Shown here one piece after another: positions 5,240-57,013 of a stretch of 64,000 bases of DNA (positions are counted from its first letter, which is position 1; each line of letters opens with the position of its first letter). Location: assembly GCA_964519455.1 (NCBI GenBank), contig CAZFIU010000003.1, positions 18,943-82,942 on the forward strand, given 5' to 3'. Origin of the DNA: an uncultured Syntrophobacterales bacterium. Lineage in GTDB: Bacteria; Desulfobacterota; Binatia; UBA9968; JAJDTQ01. A program made the translations under genes and the position numbers. The notes beneath the pieces are model-generated. The model did no database searches and was not told the origin of the DNA. It saw only the letters and a program-made list of their open reading frames with translations.

Positions 5240-5469
5240 GGGAGGCGGGACGCCTCGTGCCAGCGCGCGACCCGGATCCTGATGGCGCCCACGGGACAGT
5301 CCCATTCGCAGATGAAGCAGCCCTGGCAGTCTTCCTCGTACTTGGCGAACGGATAGCCGTCCTCCCCCATGCGGATCACGTCCGTCGGGCAGGCGTCGTC
5401 GCACGCGCCGCACGAGGTGCAGACTTCCTTCCAGATCTCGACCTTCGGCAGATGCAGCTCGTCGGCCAT
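5236..5469 (-). CDS. 4Fe-4S dicluster ferredoxin
   Basis: 77 aa carrying two CxxCxxCxxxCP motifs (CTSCGACDDACP and CQGCFICEWDCP). It starts 3 nt after the FAD protein stop. Confidence 0.8.
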   Translation of the reverse strand: MADELHLPKVEIWKEVCTSCGACDDACPTDVIRMGEDGYPFAKYEEDCQGCFICEWDCPVGAIRIRVARWHEASRLP

Positions 5470-5471
5470 GG

Positions 5472-7223
5472 TTACTTCTCCCCCTCCACCATTTGCCCGG
5501 CGATCTTGAAGAAAGGGTGCATCGCCCTGCCGGAGCGCGGCCAGTAGTGCAGGTAGAACTCGTCGTGGGGGATGGGCTCGTCCCAGATCTTGAGGGCGCC
5601 GTTCTCGATGATCGACTTGCTCAGCACCAGCCACTTCTCGTTGTCGGTCTCGGGATGGTCGCTGTTGATCACCGAGCCGCGGCTCTCCTGCCGGTGCAGC
5701 AGGTAGTCCAGCACCGCGGTCAGGGCCTCGATGGAGTTGCGCAGTCCCACGACCTTCACCAGGTCGTGGGGGTCCCTGGCCATGACGTTGTCGTAGGTGT
5801 CGAGGATCTCCATGAGCCCCCGCCTGACCCGCGTGATCTTCTCGTCGCTCAGGATCACCCCCAGCTCGTGCAGCAGGTCCGCGGCCCGGCCGTGGACCTC
5901 GTCGAACGCGGTGCCCTCGGGCTTGAGGTACCGGGTGACGCCGTCGGAAAGCGCCTTCACCTGCGGCGCCGCGACCCCCTTCATTTCCGCGTTCCTGGCG
6001 TAGTCGGCGGCGTGGAGCCCGGCCCACCAGCCCAGCACCATGCACCAGGAGAGGTTCAGGTTGGGCGAGATGTTCATGCCGTCGCTGCTGGCGCCGGCGG
6101 CGAACAGGCCCGGCAGCGAAGTCGCGCACTGGTCGTCCACCACCGCGCCGCCGCCGTGGCTCGAGCCGTAGGTGGCGGCCAGCACCGGCAGGTACGGGAT
6201 GCGCTCCTTGCTGATCTCGTAGCCCGCGGCCTCGAAGGTGTTCATGATGATGGGGATGACCTCGTACAGGAGGCGGACGTTCTCGGGCGGGAGCTTGGTG
6301 CAGTCCAGGTACACGGGGCCGTTGCCTTCCAGCATCTCCAGCGCCACGGCGTGTCCCAGCGACAGCCGCCGGGTGAACTCGGCCTCGGACTCGGTGAAGC
6401 GCTTCATCACGTCCACGCCCAGGCGGTTGAAGTAGCTGGTGCCCATGGTGGTGAAGTGCTCGATGCCCGGCGCGCACATGAACTCCATGGTCTGGAGGTA
6501 CTTGCTGCCGCACGCCATGTTGCCCATCACCGCGCCCGCCCGGATCTGCATGGCGACGCCGTCGCTGGTGATGTTGAGGGGCATGCCCGCGAACCACTGT
6601 CCCGGCCTCTTGTAGCCGAAATTGAAGCCGCCCGCGCACATCACCACGGACTTGGCCTCGCACACGTGCACCTCGCGCTCGCGCCCGGAGATCCCGAGGG
6701 CGCCCACCACGTGGCCGCCGGTGGGATGGCGGCCGTCCGAGGTCAGGAGGTCCGTCACCGAGACCCGGTCGAGCACGCGCACGCCGGCGCGCAGGGCCAC
6801 GCCGCGCACCACCTTCATCATCGCGGTGCCGCCACCCACCAGACCCGCCGCCAACCCGCCGCTGGCGGCCGCGCCGGAGCCCCCCTTGCCGCGCCAGAAC
6901 TCGCCGTTCTCCTTGACGAACTTGACGCCCCAGCCGTCGAGGATCTTGAGCACGTCGTAGGTGGCGTGAATCGCCTCGATGGCCTTGGTCTGGTTGGTCA
7001 GCACGCCTCGGCCGGAGAGGTGGAACTTGAGGTCGTCGCCGGGCATGTAGGTGATGTACGCCCCGGAGGCCAGCGCCGCGCAGCCGCTGCGGCCGAACAC
7101 GGACTTGTCCACCAGGAGCACGTCGGCGCCCTCCTCGCGCGCGCGGATCGCCGCCATGGCGCCGGCCGCGCCGCCGCCGATGACCAGCACGTCGGCCTTG
7201 TGATGGATGGTCTTGTAGCTCAT
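5472..7223 (-). CDS. FAD-binding oxidoreductase, fumarate reductase/succinate dehydrogenase flavoprotein-like
   Basis: Dinucleotide-binding motif DVLVIGGGAAGAMAA near the N-terminus (start taken at MSYKTIHH, ATG 7223) and overall FRD/SDH flavoprotein-like architecture. Confidence 0.8.
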   Translation of the reverse strand: MSYKTIHHKADVLVIGGGAAGAMAAIRAREEGADVLLVDKSVFGRSGCAALASGAYITYMPGDDLKFHLSGRGVLTNQTKAIEAIHATYDVLKILDGWGVKFVKENGEFWRGKGGSGAAASGGLAAGLVGGGTAMMKVVRGVALRAGVRVLDRVSVTDLLTSDGRHPTGGHVVGALGISGREREVHVCEAKSVVMCAGGFNFGYKRPGQWFAGMPLNITSDGVAMQIRAGAVMGNMACGSKYLQTMEFMCAPGIEHFTTMGTSYFNRLGVDVMKRFTESEAEFTRRLSLGHAVALEMLEGNGPVYLDCTKLPPENVRLLYEVIPIIMNTFEAAGYEISKERIPYLPVLAATYGSSHGGGAVVDDQCATSLPGLFAAGASSDGMNISPNLNLSWCMVLGWWAGLHAADYARNAEMKGVAAPQVKALSDGVTRYLKPEGTAFDEVHGRAADLLHELGVILSDEKITRVRRGLMEILDTYDNVMARDPHDLVKVVGLRNSIEALTAVLDYLLHRQESRGSVINSDHPETDNEKWLVLSKSIIENGALKIWDEPIPHDEFYLHYWPRSGRAMHPFFKIAGQMVEGEK

Positions 7224-7285
7224 GTGAGGTCCGTGGAGCCCGTGCTCCGATGCGCCCGCCGAACAGATCCGAAACGTTCCGGTCA

Positions 7286-7305
7286 ACTTGGTACGTAGAC
7301 CAAGT
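7286..7305. promoter_or_regulatory. inverted repeat ACTTGGT-N6-ACCAAGT in the divergent promoter region, a candidate operator
   Basis: Perfect 7-bp arms read directly. It lies between the FAD-oxidoreductase operon (-) and prpE (+). Confidence 0.3.
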
Positions 7306-7441
7306 CAGGGGGCACTGTCAAAGCCACGTCCGAGCCGTCTCCCGGACCGGCGTCCGAGCCCGCGGCCGGTGTTCGAGTTTGCAGGCCGGGGTCCGCCCGG
7401 TTTATGGAGAAGCCATCGGAAACCGCTTTTGGGAGACGCGA

Positions 7442-9343
7442 ATGAGCCACAACGACTACAAGGACGCTTACGCACGGGCGTTGAAGGACCCGGAAGGTTT
7501 CTGGGCCGAGGCCGCCGGCGACATCCACTGGGACCGGCGCTGGGACCGCGTGCTCGACGACTCCCGGCCGCCCTTCTACCGGTGGTTCACCGGCGGCGCC
7601 CTCAACACCTGCTACAACGCGCTGGACGTGCACGTGGAGCAGGGCAACGGCGCGCGCCCGGCGCTGATTTACGACAGCCCGGTGACGGACGGCGTCAAGA
7701 CCTTTACCTACGCAGAGCTGCGGGACGTGGTGGCGACCTTCGCCGGGGCGCTGCGCAACCACGGCGTGGGCGCCGGCGACCGGGTGATCATCTACATGCC
7801 CATGGTGCCCGAGGCGGTGGTGGCCATGCTGGCGTGCGCGCGCCTCGGCGCGGTGCACTCGGTGGTCTTCGGCGGCTTCGCCGCCAACGAGCTCGCCACC
7901 CGCATCGACGATGCCCGACCCAAGGTCATCGTGAGCGCGAGCTGCGGCATCGAGGTCAACCGCGTCGTCGAGTACAAGCCGCTGCTGGACGAGGCCATCC
8001 GCCTGGCGGGGCACAAGCCCGGCGCCTGCCTGGTGCTGCGGCGGCCCCAGGCCGAGGCCGCCATGACCGCCGACCGCGACGTGGACTGGAACGAGGCGGT
8101 GGCCGCCGCCGAACCGGCGCCATGCGTCTCCGTGGCCGCCACCGACCCCCTGTACATCCTCTACACCTCCGGCACCACCGGACAGCCCAAGGGCATCGTG
8201 CGCGACAACGGCGGCCACGCGGTGGCGCTCAAGTGGAGCATGAAGAACGTCTACGGCGTGGACGCCGGCGAGGTGTACTGGGCCGCTTCCGACGTGGGCT
8301 GGGTGGTGGGCCATTCCTACATCGTCTACGCACCGTTGCTGAAGGGCTGCACCACCGTCCTCTACGAGGGCAAGCCCGTGGGCACGCCCGATCCCGGCGC
8401 TTTCTGGCGGGTCATCAGCCAGCACGACGTCCGTGTGTTGTTCACCGCGCCCACCGCCTTCCGCGCCATCAAGAAAGAGGATCCCGACGGCGTCCATGTC
8501 GGGAAACACGACCTCAGCCGTTTCCGGACCCTGTTCCTCGCCGGCGAGCGCTGCGACCCCGATACGCTGGTGTGGGCGCGGGAGATGCTGGACGTGCCGG
8601 TCATCGACCACTGGTGGCAGACCGAGACCGGCTGGCCCATCGCGGCCAACTGCATGGGCATCGAGCCGCTCCCGGTGAAGCCCGGCTCGCCCACCCGGGC
8701 CGTGCCGGGGTACGACGTCCGCGTCCTCGACGACGAGGGACGCGAACTGCCGGCCGGCGCGATGGGCAGCATCACGCTGAAGCTGCCGCTGCCTCCGGGA
8801 TGCCTGCCCACCCTGTGGAACAACGAGCAAGGTTACCGCAGTGCCTACCTCGAGCAGCATCCCGGTTACTACGTCACCTCGGACGGCGGTTACTGCGACG
8901 AGGACGGCTACCTGTGGATCATGGGGCGCATCGACGACGTCATCAACGTCGCCGGACACCGGCTTTCCACCGGCGCCATGGAAGAGGTGGTGGCCGCCCA
9001 CCCGGCGGTGGCCGAATGCGCCGTGCTGGGCGTGGCCGACGCGCTCAAGGGCCAACTGCCCCTGGGACTGATCGTGGTCAAGGCGGGGGTGGAGACCACG
9101 GAAGAAGCCCTGGTGCCCGAACTCGTGAGCCTCGTGCGCGAAAAGATCGGGCCGGTGGCCGACTTCAAGCAGGCGCTGATGGTGAAGCGCCTGCCCAAGA
9201 CGCGCTCCGGCAAGATCCTGCGCGGCACGGTGCGGAGCATGGCGGACGGCACCCCCTACAAGGCCCCCGCCACCATCGACGATCCGGCCATACTGGACGA
9301 AATCCGGGAGGACCTGGGCCGGCTGGGGTATCCGAAAGGATGA
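7442..9343 (+). CDS. prpE: propionate--CoA ligase / acetyl-CoA-synthetase-family AMP-forming acyl-CoA synthetase
   Basis: N-terminus MSHNDYKDAYARALKDPEGFWAEAA, AMP-binding motif YTSGTTGQPKG, and C-terminal SGKILR lysine motif. GGAGA Shine-Dalgarno 6 nt upstream. Confidence 0.8.
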   Translation: MSHNDYKDAYARALKDPEGFWAEAAGDIHWDRRWDRVLDDSRPPFYRWFTGGALNTCYNALDVHVEQGNGARPALIYDSPVTDGVKTFTYAELRDVVATFAGALRNHGVGAGDRVIIYMPMVPEAVVAMLACARLGAVHSVVFGGFAANELATRIDDARPKVIVSASCGIEVNRVVEYKPLLDEAIRLAGHKPGACLVLRRPQAEAAMTADRDVDWNEAVAAAEPAPCVSVAATDPLYILYTSGTTGQPKGIVRDNGGHAVALKWSMKNVYGVDAGEVYWAASDVGWVVGHSYIVYAPLLKGCTTVLYEGKPVGTPDPGAFWRVISQHDVRVLFTAPTAFRAIKKEDPDGVHVGKHDLSRFRTLFLAGERCDPDTLVWAREMLDVPVIDHWWQTETGWPIAANCMGIEPLPVKPGSPTRAVPGYDVRVLDDEGRELPAGAMGSITLKLPLPPGCLPTLWNNEQGYRSAYLEQHPGYYVTSDGGYCDEDGYLWIMGRIDDVINVAGHRLSTGAMEEVVAAHPAVAECAVLGVADALKGQLPLGLIVVKAGVETTEEALVPELVSLVREKIGPVADFKQALMVKRLPKTRSGKILRGTVRSMADGTPYKAPATIDDPAILDEIREDLGRLGYPKG

Positions 9344-25033: not shown

Positions 25034-26581
25034 TTACACCCCCTCCACCTCGAACCCCGCCAGGTTGCGTGCCTCCCCGCTGAATTCCACCGCCACCAAG
25101 TGGATCGGCTCGCCGAGGCTCCGGTACTTGTCCGCGTAGCCCCTCTCCTTCAACTGCGTCATGGCAGAACCCGGCGGCGCCGTCTCGACCACCTTGAACT
25201 CGAACAGGTAGACGTTGCCGTTGAACCGCACGGCCATGTCCAGTCGCCCGTGGTTGCTGCTGTCCTCCACCGTGATATCCAGCCCCAGGCCTGCGAAGTA
25301 GGAGTAGAACACACTGGCGTAGTAGCCCTCGTAGTCGGCGATGTCGTTGTTCGTGTACCACTGGTGCGGGATGCTGGCGAAGAACGCGTGGAACAGCGTC
25401 CGAAGCCCGTCGAAGTCGTTGGCAAGGAGCAGGTTGTAGAGCTTGGCGCTGTTCGACACCCGCCTCGACGCGTCCCCCGTCATGCGGTTCAGCAGGCTTC
25501 TGTTCAGGCTTTGGCGGACCTCCCGGTTGGGATAGCCCAGACGGTAGAGCATCTCCCCGCCGCGAGGCTCGGCGCGCACGATGGTCAGGTAGCCGGTCTG
25601 GAACAGCAGCGCCTCCGTCGGTATGTCGTCCACGTCGAACCGCGACAGCAACTCGCCGCTGCCGACCATGCCGTCCAGCGACAAGGCGCTGACCCGGCGC
25701 TCGAACAGCGTGTCCACGAGAAACGCCGGTGAGCCCGTCTCGAACCAATGGCCGCCGAACTCCCGGTTGCGGAACAGCAGCAGGATGTCGACCGGATTGT
25801 AGACATTCTCCTCGCCCAACCAGCCGTAGCCGTTGTACCAGTCGCGGATCTCGCCTCGGTCGAGGCCCGGCAACTCCGCGGCAAACACCGTGTCCAGGTC
25901 CGCGTCCGTATAGCCGCACACCGCGGAATAGCCGGGGTCCAGCGTGATGTCGGTAAGGTTGTTGAGCCCGGAGAACAAGCTCACCTTGGAGAACTTGCTC
26001 ACTCCGGTGATGAAGCTGAACCGTAGATGCGCGTCGCTGTCCTTTATCACCGCGTACAGACCGCGCAGAAAATCACGGTTGGCGCGCGCGACTTCCGGCA
26101 CATCCAGCGCATCCAGGATGGGCTTGTCGTACTCGTCAATCAGCACCGCCACGGGCTGCCCCGCCTGGTGGTGCAGCGCCTCCAGGAGATAGCGCAAGCG
26201 TTCGACCGGTGTAGAGTATGGCGAGTCCAGCCCCGCCTTGCGTTCCACCGTGTCAAGTTGGGCCATCAGGTTCGTGTGCAGGTAGCCGGGCTCCTTGAAG
26301 TTGCCGCCGCCGAAACTCAGGCGTACGACGGGATGCCGCACCGACCAATCCCACCGATCGTGGATGTAGAGCCCTTTGAACAGCGGCTCATTGCCCTCGA
26401 ACAACTCCTTGCACGTGTCCAGGAACAGGCTCTTGCCGAAGCGTCGGGGACGGGACAGGAAGTAGTGCGTTCCCTCGTCCAGTAGCCGGCGGACATACGC
26501 GGTCTTGTCCACGTAGTAACAGCCGTCTTCGCGAATCTTGCGGAAGGTCTGAATGCCGATGGGCAGCCTGCGCCTGGTCAT
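25034..26581 (-). CDS. predicted AAA-ATPase (PF09820-like) with C-terminal PD-(D/E)xK nuclease domain (DUF1703-like)
   Basis: N-terminus LPIGIQTFRKIREDGCYYVDKTAYV...FLSRPRRFGKSL. The C-terminus carries a ...D...FEFK PD-(D/E)xK-like core (GRLDMAVRFNGNVYLFEFKV). Confidence 0.8.
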   Translation of the reverse strand: MTRRRLPIGIQTFRKIREDGCYYVDKTAYVRRLLDEGTHYFLSRPRRFGKSLFLDTCKELFEGNEPLFKGLYIHDRWDWSVRHPVVRLSFGGGNFKEPGYLHTNLMAQLDTVERKAGLDSPYSTPVERLRYLLEALHHQAGQPVAVLIDEYDKPILDALDVPEVARANRDFLRGLYAVIKDSDAHLRFSFITGVSKFSKVSLFSGLNNLTDITLDPGYSAVCGYTDADLDTVFAAELPGLDRGEIRDWYNGYGWLGEENVYNPVDILLLFRNREFGGHWFETGSPAFLVDTLFERRVSALSLDGMVGSGELLSRFDVDDIPTEALLFQTGYLTIVRAEPRGGEMLYRLGYPNREVRQSLNRSLLNRMTGDASRRVSNSAKLYNLLLANDFDGLRTLFHAFFASIPHQWYTNNDIADYEGYYASVFYSYFAGLGLDITVEDSSNHGRLDMAVRFNGNVYLFEFKVVETAPPGSAMTQLKERGYADKYRSLGEPIHLVAVEFSGEARNLAGFEVEGV

Positions 26582-35161: not shown

Positions 35162-36247
35162 ATGACGCTGATCCTCACCAACGAGGAGATCGAGAGCTGC
35201 TTCACCCTGGAGGAATGCTTCAGGGTGATGGAGCCCGCGTTCATCGACCTGGGCAACGGCGCCGCCGCCAACCTGCCCCGCCAGGACCTGCTGGTGCCCG
35301 GTCCCCTGGAGGGCAGCTACCACGGCCTCAAGTCCGCCGGCGGCTCCATGCCGCGCTTCGGCGTGACCGCCGCCCGGCTGACCTCGGACATCGTCACCTG
35401 GCCTGAAGTGGACGGCGAGAGACGGCGTGTCAAGGTGCCGCTGGCCATGGGCAACAAGTACGTCGGCCTGGTGTTTCTCTTCAGCACCGCCACCGGCGAG
35501 TTGCTGGCCATCTTCCCCGACGGCCTGGTGCAGGCCATCCGCGTGGGCGTCACCAACGCCCTTTCCGCCAAGTACATGGCGCGACCGGAATCGTCGGTGC
35601 TGGGGCTCTACGGCTCCGGCTGGCAGGCACGCTCCGGCCTCCTGGCCATGTGCTCGGCCATGCCCATCCGGGAGGTTCAGGTGTACAGCCCGACCGAGGA
35701 GCACCGACGGGCCTTCGCCCGAGAAATGGATCGCCGGGTGGAGGCCGAGGTACGGGCGGTGGACGTTCCCGAGCACGCGGCCCGCGGCGCCGACATCGCG
35801 CTTCTGACCACCAACGCGCTGGTGCCCTTCTTTCCGGCCGACTGGATTCGCCAAGGCATGCACATCGCCACCGTCCGCTCCAGCGAGATGACCGTGGACG
35901 CGCTGCTGCGGTGCGACCGGCTGGTGGTGTCGAGCCGGGAAGCTGCCCGGCTGGTGACGCTGCCCGGCGAGGAGGAGCGAATCCCGGAGGCCGGCGAGGG
36001 CGACTACAGGCGAGAGGAACTGAGCGGCACCGAGGCCGACTGGAGCCGGAAGCCGGAGTTGGGAGAGGTCATGGCGGGAAGAGCCGCGGGCAGGGAAAGC
36101 GCGGCGGAGGCGACCTGCATGCTCAACTATGTCGGACTCGGGCTCCAGTTCGCCGCCGCTGGAGCCCGAATCTACGAGTTGGCCCGGGAACGCGGCCTCG
36201 GCAGGGAGCTTCCCACCGAATGGTTCTCGCAGGACGTTCACTCGTAG
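35162..36247 (+). CDS. ornithine cyclodeaminase/mu-crystallin family protein
   Basis: Rossmann motif GLYGSGWQA and OCD-family length and pattern. Confidence 0.8.
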   Translation: MTLILTNEEIESCFTLEECFRVMEPAFIDLGNGAAANLPRQDLLVPGPLEGSYHGLKSAGGSMPRFGVTAARLTSDIVTWPEVDGERRRVKVPLAMGNKYVGLVFLFSTATGELLAIFPDGLVQAIRVGVTNALSAKYMARPESSVLGLYGSGWQARSGLLAMCSAMPIREVQVYSPTEEHRRAFAREMDRRVEAEVRAVDVPEHAARGADIALLTTNALVPFFPADWIRQGMHIATVRSSEMTVDALLRCDRLVVSSREAARLVTLPGEEERIPEAGEGDYRREELSGTEADWSRKPELGEVMAGRAAGRESAAEATCMLNYVGLGLQFAAAGARIYELARERGLGRELPTEWFSQDVHS

Positions 36248-36323
36248 GTGGCGCCGTGGGAGGGTTCGCGTTGAGATTTTGGACTATGTGTCACCAAGCC
36301 GACACTTCATCCTCCTTTTCCTT

Positions 36324-37214
36324 GTGCTAAAGATCATTACATGTTACCCGTTCGCCTCAGTGATTGCCAACCCAGAATTCAAACGGCAACCAAAGTACTT
36401 TTCGGCTTACGTGCGAACGCTCAGTCAGTACCTCGGTTACACTGTTCGGAGCAAAGGGATCGTAAAAGTGCCGACGCTTTCCGAAATAGGGGCAGGACTC
36501 GGCAACTTGGGGCTCGATCCGGGAAGAATTGTGGACGCGTTTGGTAAACCAACCCAGCTTGGTGCAGACTTGAATAGGTACTTTGAATATCGCTCGAGCA
36601 TTCTCAACAATTCAGTACAACATCAATTGATGACAGTCGAAGAGGCACGGCACACCTTCGAGGAGTTGCGCGAGGCCATGGTCTACGGTTGCCCCCTTCC
36701 GCTAAACAAGCAAAAAGGTGACAAGGCAGGCCCAGCGTACTTTACGGGAATCATCAATATGCTGATCGCTAACGGCTTGAGGGGGACTCAGTGCGACTAT
36801 TCACCCATGAAACTCACAACAATCACGAGAAACGCTACAGTAATCCGAACACTATCTAGACGGGTCGATGGCGCTTTCCCTGCCGTCGTGAATCCGTTGG
36901 CGTTGTGGGAAATCAAAGAGTACTACTACACTACCACGTTCGGAAGCAGAATCGCCGACGGAGTATACGAAACCCTTTTGGATGGCATGGAACTGCAAGA
37001 ACTCCGGGAACATGAGAATATTGACGTCAAACATTATCTGATGGTCGATGCGTACAACACGTGGTGGGAAATGGGTAGACCGTACCTCTGCCGTATGGTG
37101 GACATGCTCCACATGGGCTATGTCGATGAAGTCCTCTTTGGCAGGGATGTGATTGAGCGAATTCCCGAACTTACCAAGGAATGGCTGTCTCTGCTGGAGA
37201 ACAAGCCAGTCTAA
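36324..37214 (+). CDS. putative type II restriction endonuclease, DpnII/MboI-like (start uncertain: GTG 36324, TTG 36279 or GTG 36288)
   Basis: Low-GC (~50%) gene convergent with and overlapping a Dam-family methyltransferase. The segment PLALWEIKEYYYTTTFGSRIADGVYETLL resembles the DpnII ExK...SGSK catalytic core. No ATG is present, so an alternative start codon is required. Confidence 0.45.
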   Translation: MLKIITCYPFASVIANPEFKRQPKYFSAYVRTLSQYLGYTVRSKGIVKVPTLSEIGAGLGNLGLDPGRIVDAFGKPTQLGADLNRYFEYRSSILNNSVQHQLMTVEEARHTFEELREAMVYGCPLPLNKQKGDKAGPAYFTGIINMLIANGLRGTQCDYSPMKLTTITRNATVIRTLSRRVDGAFPAVVNPLALWEIKEYYYTTTFGSRIADGVYETLLDGMELQELREHENIDVKHYLMVDAYNTWWEMGRPYLCRMVDMLHMGYVDEVLFGRDVIERIPELTKEWLSLLENKPV

Positions 37215-38101
37215 TCGGGGCTGTAAGTCAACAACAGACGGTCGGCTACCTTTTCTTCCTCCAACGTTTCACCGTTCATCTGAAAGCGCCGCAACATGGA
37301 ACGTCCGCAGTCAATAAAAACCTCTCGATCAAATAGGCCTTTCGGGATTGAAAGGTCCACTTTGTGCTTCCCGGACTTCTTTGTCCCATCAATGCTCAGG
37401 GCGACGTAAACACCCCTGTTTTTGCAGTCCTCAATAGCGTTAAAGAGATCGGGCAAGTGGAAGGACTGTGCCCCGTAGAGTATCGCTTGGGAGTTACTAT
37501 AGGGCGGATCGCAATAGATGAGATCGTTAGGCCTAGCTTGTGCCATGGCCTCTTGATAATCCATCAGCAAGAATTGCGTGCCCGATGTTCTTGAGACCCA
37601 CTCATCCACGCGCCTTGAGAAGCTACTCGGGTGAATTGGATCGTGGGCACCGCAGGGCGTGGACATATACCCGTCGCGTTGCCTGAAACGCACTACGCCG
37701 CCATAGCACGACCGGCAGAGAAACACGAGGTCTGCTCCATTCGGATTGACGTTATATGCTGCCTTGATCTTCTCATACTGCCGTATCTTGTCCCCGCCTT
37801 TCAAAAACAGCCATCTCTCGGCGTACCAGAGTTTTAGCAGCTCGGGGTCGTTTGAGAGTGTCTGCCAGATTTCAACGAGAGGTTTGAAGGAATCAGAAGC
37901 GACCCCGCAACTCGGTGCAAGCGTTGCGAGGACGGCTGCACTTCCTACAAACGGTTCCCGGTACGTGCCCATCTGGGAGGGAAAGAATGAGGCTATCTGA
38001 TGGGCGAATCGCTGCTTGTTGCCAACCCACTTGAGCAACCCTGCCCTGAAGGGGCGGACCATCGCAGTATCCGAAAAAGGAAACCGTTGTTGGTAAACCA
38101 T
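37211..38101 (-). CDS. Dam-family N6-adenine DNA methyltransferase (D12 class)
   Basis: Motif I-like KWVGNK, EPFVGSAAV, and catalytic IYCDPPY (DPPY). Alternative start at 38062. Confidence 0.8.
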   Translation of the reverse strand: MVYQQRFPFSDTAMVRPFRAGLLKWVGNKQRFAHQIASFFPSQMGTYREPFVGSAAVLATLAPSCGVASDSFKPLVEIWQTLSNDPELLKLWYAERWLFLKGGDKIRQYEKIKAAYNVNPNGADLVFLCRSCYGGVVRFRQRDGYMSTPCGAHDPIHPSSFSRRVDEWVSRTSGTQFLLMDYQEAMAQARPNDLIYCDPPYSNSQAILYGAQSFHLPDLFNAIEDCKNRGVYVALSIDGTKKSGKHKVDLSIPKGLFDREVFIDCGRSMLRRFQMNGETLEEEKVADRLLLTYSPD

Positions 38102-49011: not shown

Positions 49012-49328
49012 CGGCCCTTCTCTGAGCCGGGGTTCCACCTCAGCGGCGAAAATAGCTGAACCGTCACGTTCCAGTGCGCTAATCCGCCACCGTTCCACGG
49101 CTTGTTGCAGCCCATGTTGCTGGAAACGCTTTCCGTGCGGATTTCAGCGTGTTACCGGGGTAGGGTCAGTGCAGGCCAGCACACTTGACCGCAATTGTAA
49201 TAGTTCGCTGATGAGAACCATTATGCTGTTGCCTGCATCGACGTCCCCGCGCTCCACCTGCACCATTGACCGTAACAACAGTCGCCTTGAGCTTGTCGCC
49301 CACAGGATCCGCGTTACAGGAAAGTTCG

Positions 49329-50849
49329 ATGCCTAGGCTTGACGTCGCCTACGACGAGGTCCGTCACGGAAACTTGGTGACCGAGAAATCACTAGACACG
49401 GACTGCGTCGAAGTTTACTACGTCCCCTCAAGGGAACAGCTCGCATATGCCGGCCTGGACCCGGAGAACGCCTCCTCCTACCGTGTGAAGCTCTTAGAAT
49501 GGGGCCTCACCGACGGAAGTGATCGCCTTACCGTCTTCCCAATCAACACTTTCGGTGACCGGCCCGCCTTTCTCAAGCCAAAATACAAGAAGATCGAACG
49601 GATTACCCTAGCCGGCGCTAAACCAGTCCTTTCGCGGTCTCACGACGACGATGGCGAAGCGCCCAAGTACGCCAACTCCATTACGTTCGGCCCCACTAGA
49701 CCTATGGACCGACCTATCGATGACGTCCAGATTGAAGAACTTCCAACGTCACGCGAACAGGTCATCAGCATACTCGAGACGTTGCCGCCCGTATTCACCA
49801 AGGACTACGACTATGGACTTGGGTTGGCGAAGCCCTATCGATTCATTGTCGAAGCAGTTGAACACCTTTGTGACTGTACCGAACTCGTCATATCAGACGA
49901 CCACCACACGGAGGCCGTTGAGAACGTGTTCTATATTTCAACTGCTGACTTCGAGCATGTCCGACGATTTTTGAATAGCACTACCACCAACAGTCAAACA
50001 GCGACGCGATCAGTGAAAACGGCCGAAACCTACAATTTCTTCGCAGAAAGGCTAGGGAAACCAACGGTTCCGGCCAGCATTGGACGCCACCCCTTGCGCA
50101 AGAAACTAACGGCCCTTCTTCAACGAAAGGAGCCCGAACTGTCAGAGGAGGAACAAGAAGAACTCCTTGACACCATGGTGAGAAACGTCAAGACAATGTC
50201 GCAGGAGAACCCGCAACGGTTGGCGAGCCTGCAACGCGATATTGACCTCGTCAATCTGGAGGGGCTGATATCACGGTTCGAGGCAATGCTGACGAGTCCT
50301 CACAAAGAGGGAGTATGGCAAGAGTTTCTTAAAATAAACCCTTTCATCCTCAGTTTAGCGTTCGGTTACCCCATTATCCAGATCCAGGAGAAAGCCTCCG
50401 TAGGAGGACGCACCATTTCTGGCAAGGGCGACAAGTTTACGGACTTCCTCGTCACAAACAGCCTTACCAACAATACCGCGATAATCGAGATTAAGACACC
50501 GGAGACAAGGTTGCTGAGCAGCAAGAGTTATCGTGACGCTGTCTTGACGCCGTCGGCAGAACTATCAGGCGCAATCAACCAAACATTGGACCAGAAACAC
50601 CGCCTAGAGAAGGAAATTGTCCAGATCAAAGAAAACAGCGGACTGCACAACCTCAAATCGTACTCTGTAAACTGCTGCCTCATTATTGGTACTATGCCCA
50701 CGGAGGAACCCCGTATGAAGTCGTTCGAACTCTTTCGGGGAAACTCAAAGGATGTAGAAATAGTGACTTTCGATGAATTGCTAAAAAAGCTACGCAACCT
50801 TCAGTCTTTTCTAACGGCCCCGCCAGGGGACAACGACGTGCCGTTCTAG
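49329..50849 (+). CDS. Shedu-like defence protein (DUF4263 PD-(D/E)xK nuclease domain) with an uncharacterised ~330-aa N-terminal region
   Basis: C-terminal WQEFLKINPFIL...GDKFTDFLV...AIIEIKTPETRL...CLIIGTMP...FELFRG...IVTFDELL fits the DUF4263/SduA core. The gene is low-GC (~52%). The TTG at 49266 is an alternative start. Confidence 0.65.
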   Translation: MPRLDVAYDEVRHGNLVTEKSLDTDCVEVYYVPSREQLAYAGLDPENASSYRVKLLEWGLTDGSDRLTVFPINTFGDRPAFLKPKYKKIERITLAGAKPVLSRSHDDDGEAPKYANSITFGPTRPMDRPIDDVQIEELPTSREQVISILETLPPVFTKDYDYGLGLAKPYRFIVEAVEHLCDCTELVISDDHHTEAVENVFYISTADFEHVRRFLNSTTTNSQTATRSVKTAETYNFFAERLGKPTVPASIGRHPLRKKLTALLQRKEPELSEEEQEELLDTMVRNVKTMSQENPQRLASLQRDIDLVNLEGLISRFEAMLTSPHKEGVWQEFLKINPFILSLAFGYPIIQIQEKASVGGRTISGKGDKFTDFLVTNSLTNNTAIIEIKTPETRLLSSKSYRDAVLTPSAELSGAINQTLDQKHRLEKEIVQIKENSGLHNLKSYSVNCCLIIGTMPTEEPRMKSFELFRGNSKDVEIVTFDELLKKLRNLQSFLTAPPGDNDVPF

Positions 50850-54572: not shown

Positions 54573-54620
54573 CGCCCGATCAGTGAAACACCGGCAAGGC
54601 GGACTTGCAATTCACCGCAT

Positions 54621-54633
54621 AACGTACTACGTT
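54621..54633. promoter_or_regulatory. palindrome AACGTA-C-TACGTT upstream of higB, a candidate HigA operator
   Basis: Read directly, ~7 nt upstream of ATG 54640. Confidence 0.35.
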
Positions 54634-54639
54634 TCTGCC

Positions 54640-54927
54640 ATGATCCGGTCTTGGCGCAACGCCGCGACCCGCAGGGTCTGGGACGGCGAACAACCCAAGG
54701 CGTTCCGAAGTCTGGACGTGGACATGGCCACGGACCTGCTGCTCGCACTCAACGCGGCCGAAACGCTCCGGGACTTGAGCCCGCTCAGGAGCGTCGGCCT
54801 CCACAAACTCAAGGGCGAGCGCAAGGCGCAGTGGGCCATGACCGTAAACGGCCCCTGGCGAATCTGCTTCGAGTTCCGCAAGGGCGATGCCTTTAACGTG
54901 GAGATTGTCGATTATCACAAAGGATGA
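54640..54927 (+). CDS. higB: type II toxin HigB (RelE/ParE superfamily, plasmid maintenance system killer)
   Basis: MIRSWRNAATRRVWDG...LKGERKAQWAMTVNGPWRICFEF...VEIVDYH is the classic HigB killer-protein pattern. Confidence 0.8.
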   Translation: MIRSWRNAATRRVWDGEQPKAFRSLDVDMATDLLLALNAAETLRDLSPLRSVGLHKLKGERKAQWAMTVNGPWRICFEFRKGDAFNVEIVDYHKG

Positions 54928-54931
54928 TGCC

Positions 54932-55219
54932 ATGCCCCCTGTTGTCCATCCCGGAAGACTGCTGAAACGTGAGATCGAGGCCCGCGGACTGAGCGCCAAC
55001 CGGCTAGCCCTGGCCCTCGGCGTTCCTTCCGGCCGTGTCACCGACATCCTGAACGGACGGCGTTCGATCACCGCGGAAACGGCGGTGCGGCTGGGGCGCT
55101 ACTTCGGCAATCGCCCCGGTTTCTGGCTTGCACTCCAAAGCCAGTACGACATCGCGCTGGTGGAGCGGGACCGGGGCGCGGAGATCGACAACCAAGTGAG
55201 GCCGGCGGCCTCGACCTGA
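54932..55219 (+). CDS. higA: HigA antitoxin (XRE-family HTH)
   Basis: HPGRLLKREIEARGLSANRLALALGVPSGRVTDILNGRRSITAETAVRLGRYFG is an HTH_3/HigA pattern. It starts 4 nt after the higB stop. Confidence 0.8.
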   Translation: MPPVVHPGRLLKREIEARGLSANRLALALGVPSGRVTDILNGRRSITAETAVRLGRYFGNRPGFWLALQSQYDIALVERDRGAEIDNQVRPAAST

Positions 55220-55375
55220 CCGCGGCTTGAAGCGGACCCATCACCGCCGGGAATGCCTGCAAGATCTCTCGAATCACGCGCGGGATCCGGTCGCGCGGCA
55301 GGACCCTGTCTGATAACATGACGCCTCTTTCGGGTGCGCATGGAAACCCCGCGGAGCGCGGGAAAGGAGATGCCG

Positions 55376-55981
55376 ATGGCCGATCGAGTGACCCTGGAGG
55401 TCTTCTCGGACTTCGTTTGACCGTGGTGCTATCTCAGTACCGGGCGTATTGAGAAACTGAGGCACAATTTCGATCTCGACGTCGTCTACACGCAGTTCCC
55501 CTTGCATCCCGAAACCCCGACCGAGGGCCAACCCCGCAACATGAGCGGACCGAGCCGGGTGGATGCCATGCTCGCGCGCGAGGGCCTGCCGTTCACGGAA
55601 CGGAAGTTCAGCTACAACAGCCGGCTGGCCCAGGAACTGGCGAAATGGGCCAAGCGCGAGGGCCGGGAAGATGCCTTCAACGATGCGGTGTTCCGCGCCT
55701 ACTTCGTCGGCGCGGTGAACATCGGGGAGCCTGATGTCCTGCTCGGACTGGCGGAAGAGGCGGGACTGCCGGTGGAAGAAGCGCGCCGGGTCTTGTCCGA
55801 CCGTCCCTTCGAACAGGAGGTCAACGACGACTGGCAGCGCTGCCATTCCCTCGGGGTGCGCGCGGTGCCCACCTACCTCTCGGAGGGCCTGGCCATCGTC
55901 GGCGCGGAGCCGTACGACAGGCTGGAGCAGCTCGTCACGGAAGCGGGCGCCACCCGTTTGACGGATTCCGCGGACGCTTGA
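55376..55981 (+). CDS. DsbA-family FrnE-like thiol:disulfide oxidoreductase with an in-frame TGA (55418-55420) at the first active-site Cys position, a candidate selenoprotein (UPWC)
   Basis: MADRVTLEVFSDFV-[TGA]-PWCYLS... aligns with the FrnE/DsbA VCPWCY active site. The frame continues without further stops into the 55502..55981 ORF (LGVRAVPTYL...). GGAAAGGAG Shine-Dalgarno 6 nt upstream. A hairpin lies 11 nt after the TGA. Confidence 0.6.
55432..55454 (+). promoter_or_regulatory. bSECIS-like hairpin (UCUCAGUAC-CGGGC-GUAUUGAGA) starting 11 nt downstream of the in-frame UGA
   Basis: 9-bp stem (one G-U pair) with a 5-nt GG-containing apical loop, read directly. The spacing matches bacterial SECIS elements. 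Confidence 0.45.
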
Positions 55982-56095: not shown

Positions 56096-57013
56096 ATGTC
56101 ATCCGGCATTCCGGAAGTCGATTTCGAACCGTTCCTGAACGGGGACGCGGCGGCGCGCCGCCGGGTCGCGGAAGAGATCCGCGCGGCCTGCGGCGAGTAC
56201 GGCTTTCTCAATGTCGTCAACCTGCCTCTGCCCAACGGGTTGGTCCAGCGCGTTTCCGCCAAGGCCAAGAAGTTCTTCGCCTTGCCCGCGGAGGTCAAGG
56301 ACGCCATCGGCCGGTCCGACCTCGACGTCATCTCGGGCTACGTCGGCATCGCCGTCGAACACCTCGACACGCAGCAGCCGGGGGACCTCAAGGAATCCTT
56401 CAGCCTGAACCAGGCCAGCCTGAAGCTGCTGGACCGCTGGCACATCCCGGTGGCCGGCTTTCGCGAGACGGTCCTGGAACTCCACGAGGCCGCCGCGCAC
56501 GCGTGCGCGGCGCTGGTGCGCGCCATGGCGCTGTCCCTGGACGCGCCCGAGGATTTCTTCGAGGACAAGCACGCGCCCCACGCCAGCACCGTGCGCTTTT
56601 TCCACTACCCGCCGCTGACGCGTCCGCCCGGAGACGGGCAACTGCGCGCGGGAAGCCACACGGACTACGGCACCGTCACGCTGGTCTTCCAGGACGAGGT
56701 GGAGGGTCTGGAGGCGCTGGTGGACGGCCGGTGGGTGACGGTCCCCGTGGTGCCCGGTACCGTCACGGTCAACGTGGCGGACCTGCTGTCACGCTGGAGC
56801 AACGGCATCTACCGTTCGCCCAAGCACCGGGTGGCCCTGCCGAGCGCCAACGCGGACCGGTCCCGGTACTCCAACGTATTCTTCTACAACCCCAACAGCG
56901 CGGCCACGGTCCGGTGCCTCGACTCCTGCTGCGACGCCGGCCGGCCTGCCCGGTATCCACCCATTGCCGCCGGGGAGTTCCTCAGACAGCGGCGCGCCGC
57001 ACAGTATCAGTAA
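56096..57013 (+). CDS. 2OG-Fe(II) oxygenase (isopenicillin-N-synthase-like non-haem dioxygenase)
   Basis: H-x-D...H facial triad region (GSHTDYGTVTLVFQD ... SPKHRV) and DIOX_N-like N-terminus. Confidence 0.8.
   Translation: MSSGIPEVDFEPFLNGDAAARRRVAEEIRAACGEYGFLNVVNLPLPNGLVQRVSAKAKKFFALPAEVKDAIGRSDLDVISGYVGIAVEHLDTQQPGDLKESFSLNQASLKLLDRWHIPVAGFRETVLELHEAAAHACAALVRAMALSLDAPEDFFEDKHAPHASTVRFFHYPPLTRPPGDGQLRAGSHTDYGTVTLVFQDEVEGLEALVDGRWVTVPVVPGTVTVNVADLLSRWSNGIYRSPKHRVALPSANADRSRYSNVFFYNPNSAATVRCLDSCCDAGRPARYPPIAAGEFLRQRRAAQYQ

Follow-up and report, generated by a model that had tools for sequence, protein, structure and literature searches.

The window analyzed here, a stretch of 64,000 nucleotides (nt) from a metagenome-assembled genome of Candidatus Binatia, carries on its forward strand a gene with an in-frame TGA codon, which very probably encodes a DsbA/FrnE-like oxidoreductase containing selenocysteine (Sec). 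The complete coding sequence of 201 codons runs from the ATG at 55376 to the stop codon TGA at 55979–55981 (55376–55981, + strand), and is delimited by a Pfam DSBA match, matches to solved structures, and conservation of the N-terminus. A Shine-Dalgarno sequence, AAGGAG (55364–55369, +), can be read 6 nt before this ATG; the corresponding motif (ggag...ccgATG) is conserved in 19 orthologs from Candidatus Binatia, and they do not retain the other possible start, the ATG at 55370. The in-frame TGA is codon 15 (55418–55420, +), in the context F-S-D-F-V-U-P-W-C-Y-L-S-T-G-R, where it would specify Sec (U15) as the first residue of a U-P-W-C redox motif, given the conservation of the TGA and the presence of Cys at the same position in homologs. 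The second residue of this UxxC motif, Cys18, is encoded by TGC (55427–55429, +) in the sequence and in the ortholog alignment, and is the putative selenenylsulfide partner of U15. Translated mechanically, the locus yields just a 159-amino-acid open reading frame (ORF) from a TTG at 55502 to 55981, all of it downstream of the TGA.

The gene's own terminator is a second UGA, and no hairpin of the kind described below lies beside it. Because UGA terminates translation in the ordinary way at other places in the window and also in the selenoprotein gene itself, a reassigned genetic code is excluded. A crude screen of the window for further genes with in-frame TGA codons, based on GC content at third codon positions, gave candidates that, where traced, proved to be antisense to real genes, out of frame, or ordinary stops; none of these was credible.

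Translated with Cys in place of Sec, the protein matches the Pfam family DSBA (PF01323) over residues 6–186 (E = 1.2e-31; profile positions 1–189 of 191), so that the domain match spans the recoded codon. The nearest solved structure is that of the DsbA-like protein SCO1869 from Streptomyces coelicolor (PDB 3gl5; E = 1e-18, residues 6–194), in which the alignment places CPWCY opposite the U/C-PWCY of the query, and FrnE from Deinococcus radiodurans (PDB 5cnw) matches over residues 3–181 (E = 8e-17). An earlier, sequence-only reading of this DNA had proposed the 201-codon frame from 55376 with FrnE/DsbA homology along its full length, the TGA in place of the first Cys of a CPWC motif, and an ORF track blind to everything upstream of the TGA; the profile and structure matches, together with the alignment to Cys homologs reported below, bear out each of these proposals. 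Among the NCBIfam models no specific one was found, and the only match was partial and below threshold, scoring 25 bits where the cut-off for the (seleno)lipoprotein family concerned is 190. The sequence has no signal peptide, the first beta-strand starting from about residue 5, and the product is predicted to be cytoplasmic because it is leaderless.

In these respects the protein resembles FrnE (5cnw) and SCO1869 (3gl5), which are likewise cytoplasmic DsbA-like proteins of COG2761 with a CPWC-type site and no signal peptide; it differs in having Sec for the first Cys and in its length of 201 amino acids, as compared with 239–260. FrnE of D. radiodurans (260 amino acids) has an additional C-terminal tail containing Cys. 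There is no such tail in the window protein, which ends in ...TRLTDSADA and whose only further Cys is C156, with none after it. The periplasmic DsbA of Escherichia coli, a disulfide-forming protein with a CPHC site, shares the thioredoxin fold with its helical insert and belongs to the same Pfam clan and family, but the window protein has no signal peptide, begins with the first beta-strand, and carries the dipeptide PW rather than PH. The product belongs to the FrnE-like cytoplasmic branch, and hence is probably a reductase or isomerase rather than a periplasmic oxidant.

The TGA is found at codon 15 in 19 of 19 orthologs from Candidatus Binatia (82–98% identity, with locus L001 the closest at 98%), and it is kept in a homolog from SAR324 at 45% identity (L021). 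Homologs from Terriglobia, Acidobacteriota, and Desulfarculia (44–46% identity) have TGC or TGT at this position, and the TGA column of the alignment corresponds to TGY in 60 loci with the Cys form (TGY-CCN-TGG-TGY, including L020 and L022–L024), giving CPWC versus UPWC. A metagenome scan for GAYTTYNNNTGACCNTGGTGYTAYNT, a pattern that itself included the TGA, returned contigs that all translate as DsbA-like N-termini with U-P-W-C-Y, their number (at least 120) being a lower bound; the complete blastp-matched proteins from metagenomic contigs (∼97) are 25–57% identical to the window protein.

In protein databases, the ∼52 closest relatives (63–95% identity) are all called at 133–179 amino acids and are without the N-terminus, the products called at the same locus in public assemblies have 146 or 155 amino acids, and full-length CPWC homologs appear only at ≤52% identity. 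Truncated calls of this sort are typical of selenoprotein genes whose UGA has been taken for a stop. Gene-caller products of 146–179 amino acids would also be expected from a pseudogene or truncated gene, in which translation truly stops at the TGA, the 14 codons before it survive only as a relic, and initiation at the TTG at 55502 or a nearby ATG yields an N-truncated protein at best; that the Sec machinery has so far not been located for the window genome speaks for the same explanation. The upstream codons do not behave as a relic. Among the Binatia, the amino acids of the 14 codons before the TGA are kept while third positions vary in 11 of the 14, a pattern which indicates that this stretch is translated and under purifying selection, and this selection extends, with the Shine-Dalgarno motif, across 19 species-level genomes. 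Moreover, the TGA is kept, rather than randomized, in proteins down to ∼25% identity, the shortened product would be without strand beta1 and the entire redox motif (the Pfam match starts at residue 6), and a relic would not preserve a covarying hairpin such as that described below. We regard a pseudogene or truncation as very improbable.

Downstream of the UGA, constraint acts on the nucleotides themselves. When the 20 Binatia sequences are aligned, a block of 41 nt (55418–55458, +), which starts with the TGA and ends 4 nt beyond the hairpin, is invariant at 40 positions; its lone variable column, 55429, alternates between TGC and TGT in the codon for Cys18. The block thus comprises invariant runs of 11 nt (55418–55428) and 29 nt (55430–55458), runs of 8 nt being the longest elsewhere in the gene. 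Of the 13 codons of the block, 1 varies at the third position, as compared with 74% gene-wide, and by our own arithmetic the probability of 12 invariant third positions out of 13, given a background invariance of 26%, is ∼1e-6.

The frozen block contains a putative bacterial Sec insertion sequence (SECIS) hairpin at 55432–55454 (+), identified from folding, covariation, conservation of a loop G, and the published consensus. It consists of a 5′ arm UCUCAGUAC (55432–55440), a loop CGGGC (55441–55445), and a 3′ arm GUAUUGAGA (55446–55454), forming a stem of 9 base pairs (bp) with a 5-nt loop, and its onset is 11 nt past the UGA (spacer 55421–55431). The predicted folding energy is –9.4 kcal/mol for the 23-nt hairpin alone and –14.6 kcal/mol in a 53-nt context. 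An outer helix that appears in the 53-nt fold (55426–55430 with 55461–55465) was rejected, as by-eye reading of the orthologs found changes on its 3′ side to be uncompensated.

The bSECISearch consensus, as quoted in the legend to Figure 2 of a recent review (PMC13188914), describes a loop of 3–9 nt on an upper stem of 4–16 bp, a G at loop position 1 or 2, or at both, with G or U after it in most cases, a distance of 16–37 nt from the UGA to the apical loop, and a minimum free energy no higher than –7.5 kcal/mol. In the window, the loop of 5 nt lies on a stem of 9 bp (7 bp in the family-wide core), the loop reads C-G-G-G-C, the distance from the UGA to the loop is 20 nt (the 11-nt spacer plus the 9-nt 5′ arm), and the energy of –9.4 kcal/mol lies below the –7.5 kcal/mol required. 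The 9-bp hairpin with a GG-containing loop, 11 nt past the UGA and of bacterial SECIS geometry, had been anticipated in the sequence-only reading, and it folds as predicted there. That reading had also named the loss of the hairpin from orthologs that retain the TGA as a sign of a pseudogene; the opposite was found, since the hairpin is invariant in the 19 orthologs and is compensated across 75 distinct Sec forms.

The SelB-bound hairpin of E. coli fdhF serves as the reference for such elements. In work associated with the Böck laboratory and Engelberg-Kulka, the minimal fdhF SECIS reportedly lies within the coding sequence and starts 11 nt after the UGA. The window element resembles it in being an intragenic hairpin 11 nt past the UGA with a critical G-[G/U] in the loop, but has no sequence similarity to it, has the loop CGGGC on a stem without a bulged U, and is without a conserved lower helix including the UGA.

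Covariation of the stem, a test added to those of the published filter, was assessed on 75 distinct sequences of the Sec form, each of 42 nt and aligned without gaps. In the register of the window stem 80.1% of cells are paired, compared with 33–44% when the 3′ arm is slid by 1–3 columns, and 133 cells show double-sided change, as opposed to 47.5 ± 5.3 in shuffles. The covariation score is 0.52 versus 0.19 in shuffles (0 of 500 shuffles reach the observed value), five stem pairs have 5–38 double-sided compensatory changes apiece, and RNAalifold independently finds 6 of the 7 core pairs. This family-wide core consists of 7 bp (55434–55440 with 55446–55452), the two outer pairs being confined to a Binatia-like subset. 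Loops across the family include CGGGC, CGUGC, GGUUC, and CGUGG, among others, and loop position 2 (55442; alignment column 25) holds a G in at least 90% of the 75 Sec forms, with G or U as the usual next base. Furthermore, the encoded peptides differ among Sec forms (YLSTGRIEK, YLVTGRVEK, YVGTVRLDK, YIGLVEVER) while pairing is maintained, which indicates that the amino acid changes are themselves tuned to the pairing. As a control, 58 distinct Cys forms pair at 4.5 of 9 positions in register, in comparison with 7.4 of 9 for the Sec forms. At the level of sequence comparison, these observations show an RNA hairpin under structural selection.

These data also bear on whether the TGA is an artifact, that is, a sequencing or assembly error that turned TGC or TGT into TGA, with a hairpin that arose by chance from conservation of the peptide YLSTGRIEK. 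TGA is one base away from either Cys codon, and the hairpin taken alone is statistically ordinary, and our crude implementation of the bacterial SECIS filters is passed by 86 of 119 Sec forms, but also by 25 of 58 Cys forms. An error of this kind would have to recur in 19 independent genome assemblies and in the metagenome contigs counted above, and the synonymous sites in the hairpin are frozen beyond what conservation of the peptide explains. Different peptides retain the pairing by compensatory changes, and the Cys forms are unpaired in register. Judged on these comparative data, the artifact can be taken as already refuted, and we give it almost no credence.

Taken together, these findings leave us highly confident that this is a real gene for an FrnE/DsbA-like thiol-disulfide oxidoreductase of Candidatus Binatia, in which the nucleophilic N-terminal residue of the CxxC motif is predicted to be Sec, with the UGA read via the downstream hairpin. 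By analogy with the established bacterial Sec pathway, translation would start at the ATG at 55376, and with the UGA in the A site, SelB carrying Sec-tRNA(Sec) would bind the apical part of the hairpin, which begins 11 nt after the UGA and whose G-G-containing loop begins 20 nt after it. Sec would then be inserted at position 15 instead of termination, and translation would end normally at the second UGA, which has no hairpin. The product would alternate between two states, a selenolate/thiol and a selenenylsulfide involving Cys18, so as to reduce or isomerize disulfides, a catalytic role and substrate inferred by the same analogy.

Several results weigh against this interpretation. The folding of the single sequence lacks significance (z = –1.48; in the 53-nt context 19 of 200 shuffles do equally well), and Rfam gave no match at the gathering score in the window and none resembling SECIS at E ≤ 10 in 55300–55600. 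No selA, selB, or selD was found in the 64-kb window by a Pfam scan of ∼60 ORFs, and neither sel genes nor tRNA-Sec were found in ∼370 kb of Binatia flanks, both results being of little weight for genomes of 4–5 Mb. In the literature searched, no paper was found that pairs Binatia or Binatota with selenocysteine, selenoprotein, or selenium. The absence of an Rfam match does not argue against function, because bacterial SECIS elements are gene-family specific; the sole Rfam hit in 55300–55600 was a viral hairpin at E = 7.9, attributable to chance. Since the fold alone is not significant and the filters are not specific, the hairpin by itself is weak evidence, and the case rests on comparison with relatives, which is decisive.

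With regard to the Sec machinery, ARAGORN detected no tRNA of any kind in the 64-kb window, and across the 200 collected loci it detected one tRNA-Sec, in L122 (soil contig Ga0335085_10004480). Local tblastn searches of the window and all 200 loci with SelA and SelB from L122, and with an E. coli SelD sequence that served as a probe only, found matches solely in L122. On this contig, selA (TIGR00474, E = 1.5e-171), selB (TIGR00475, E = 7.6e-109), and tRNA-Sec stand in a row at 5375–8588, ∼2.7 kb from the Sec-DsbA gene, with all of them within ∼6 kb of it. The selB ORF extends to 8553, so that its 3′ end lies within the tRNA-Sec of L122 (8495–8588), an arrangement that resembles the nesting of selC in selB in other Proteobacteria (Mukai, 2021, as cited in PMC13188914). 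When SelA from L122 was used as a database probe, the named matches were nearly all from Betaproteobacteria/Burkholderiales and none were from Binatia. L122 is therefore Burkholderiales-like and not a relative of Binatia, and for this reason the SelA probe search is uninformative for the window genome.

A further possibility is that the UGA is read through without Sec, by near-cognate insertion of Cys or Trp or by some other recoding, with the hairpin doing no more than slowing the ribosome. Hairpins are known to stimulate other kinds of recoding, and this, together with Sec machinery not having been located for Binatia, counts in favor of such a mechanism. The hairpin nevertheless has features of the SelB type, with the right spacing and a small loop carrying G-[G/U] at positions 2–3 (at least 90% conserved); the recoded position is that of the redox Cys, the standard Sec/Cys pair; and in L122 a homologous gene of the Sec form lies beside selA-selB-selC. 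Additionally, the family has already been catalogued as a selenoprotein (PMC1088965, PMC13188914). Sec-independent read-through thus seems highly unlikely.

The argument for Sec decoding in the window genome is an evolutionary one: as the UGA, the hairpin, and the upstream codons have stayed intact over this divergence, the UGA must be read. On this basis it is very likely that Binatia decode Sec at all, and it is possible that the class Candidatus Binatia is a uniformly Sec-decoding lineage.

DsbA-like selenoproteins with a UxxC motif (COG2761/PF01323) were first described as a new family from the Sargasso Sea metagenome, with nine sequences and one predicted SECIS shown (Zhang, Fomenko, and Gladyshev, 2005; PMC1088965), and were later found in Anaeromyxobacter dehalogenans, Desulfovibrio desulfuricans, and Desulfotomaculum reducens (PMC1794560); a 2026 review lists the family as "DsbA-like protein form 1" (PMC13188914). 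Our comparison with published form 1 members (e.g., NIP15863.1) was made by family description. On that footing the window gene shares the PF01323 domain, a UxxC motif with Sec first, a bacterial SECIS immediately downstream, a G in the small apical loop, and widespread Cys homologs. It differs in that its host, Candidatus Binatia, is absent as a Sec user from the literature searched, in that the Binatia stem is lengthened to 9 bp within a 41-nt block that is invariant as a whole, and in that the Binatia gene is fixed beside a gene for a 2-oxoglutarate (2OG)-Fe(II) oxygenase. The gene has every testable defining feature of form 1, and is another member of this family rather than a new kind of selenoprotein; the family has been known since 2005, and it is the host lineage that is so far unrecorded as a Sec user.

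Understanding of Sec decoding is unchanged by this case, and its practical value lies in correcting a systematic mis-annotation. For the gene and its closest relatives (at least ∼50 protein clusters), automatic calls yield truncated proteins without the active site, so that neither the selenium dependence nor the redox capacity of Binatia, which are uncultured and represented here solely through metagenome-assembled genomes, is recorded. In addition, the 75 distinct sequences of UGA plus hairpin provide a clean case of RNA structure co-evolving with coding sequence, and could seed a covariance model for this class of SECIS.

The downstream neighbor of the Sec-DsbA gene is the 2OG-Fe(II) oxygenase gene (56096–57013, +), recognized by the Pfam domains DIOX_N and 2OG-FeII_Oxy. 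An oxygenase gene of this type lies directly 3′ of Sec-DsbA on the same strand in 19 of 19 Binatia loci (L001–L019), with gaps of ∼10–180 nt, and among the loci examined none was found beside homologs outside Binatia. The two genes may be operon partners or a functional pair. A more specific proposal, that Sec-DsbA and the oxygenase form a fixed two-gene module in which the selenoprotein is devoted to the oxygenase or its product, either as redox partner or as repair factor, is speculative and on balance unlikely.

Directly upstream of the selenoprotein gene is a pair encoding a HigB-like toxin and a HigA-like helix-turn-helix antitoxin (∼54580–55219, +). Both genes are present in 8 of the 19 orthologous Binatia loci, L001 has HigA alone, and L003 and L004 have a partial HigA match; this patchy presence indicates that HigBA is a mobile insertion between an MmgE/PrpD gene and the DsbA gene.

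Further downstream, a 1114-amino-acid ORF (57527–60871, +) fuses a squalene epoxidase/FAD (flavin adenine dinucleotide) monooxygenase (amino acids 9–392) to the N and C domains of a squalene-hopene/oxidosqualene cyclase (amino acids 480–1105), and is followed by an ORF fusing GPP34 and cytochrome P450 (60908–62929, +). Together, the ORFs at 57527–62929 look like a compact cluster for sterol-type biosynthesis. No homologs of either ORF were found within 10 kb of the DsbA ortholog in any of the 19 Binatia genomes, not even in L001 with its 98% identity, and GC content falls from ∼0.65 to 0.56–0.60 after 60500; this absence near orthologs and the drop in GC suggest that the region is an acquired island.

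Elsewhere in the window, a 527-amino-acid ORF (49266–50849, +) has a Shedu SduA C-terminal nuclease domain (E = 5e-26) and is a candidate anti-phage defense gene, absent from the orthologous flanks examined. An ORF with DUF7690 and DUF7687 (36129–38101; E = 4e-81) is convergent with a gene on the opposite strand for a D12-class N6-adenine DNA methyltransferase, and the two possibly form a restriction-modification or defense module. Lastly, the ORF at 25034–26581 (–) encodes a predicted AAA-ATPase with a PD-(D/E)XK nuclease (PDDEXK_9), and, taken alongside Shedu, HigBA, and the methyltransferase, this ORF shows the window to be rich in genes of defense or mobile type.

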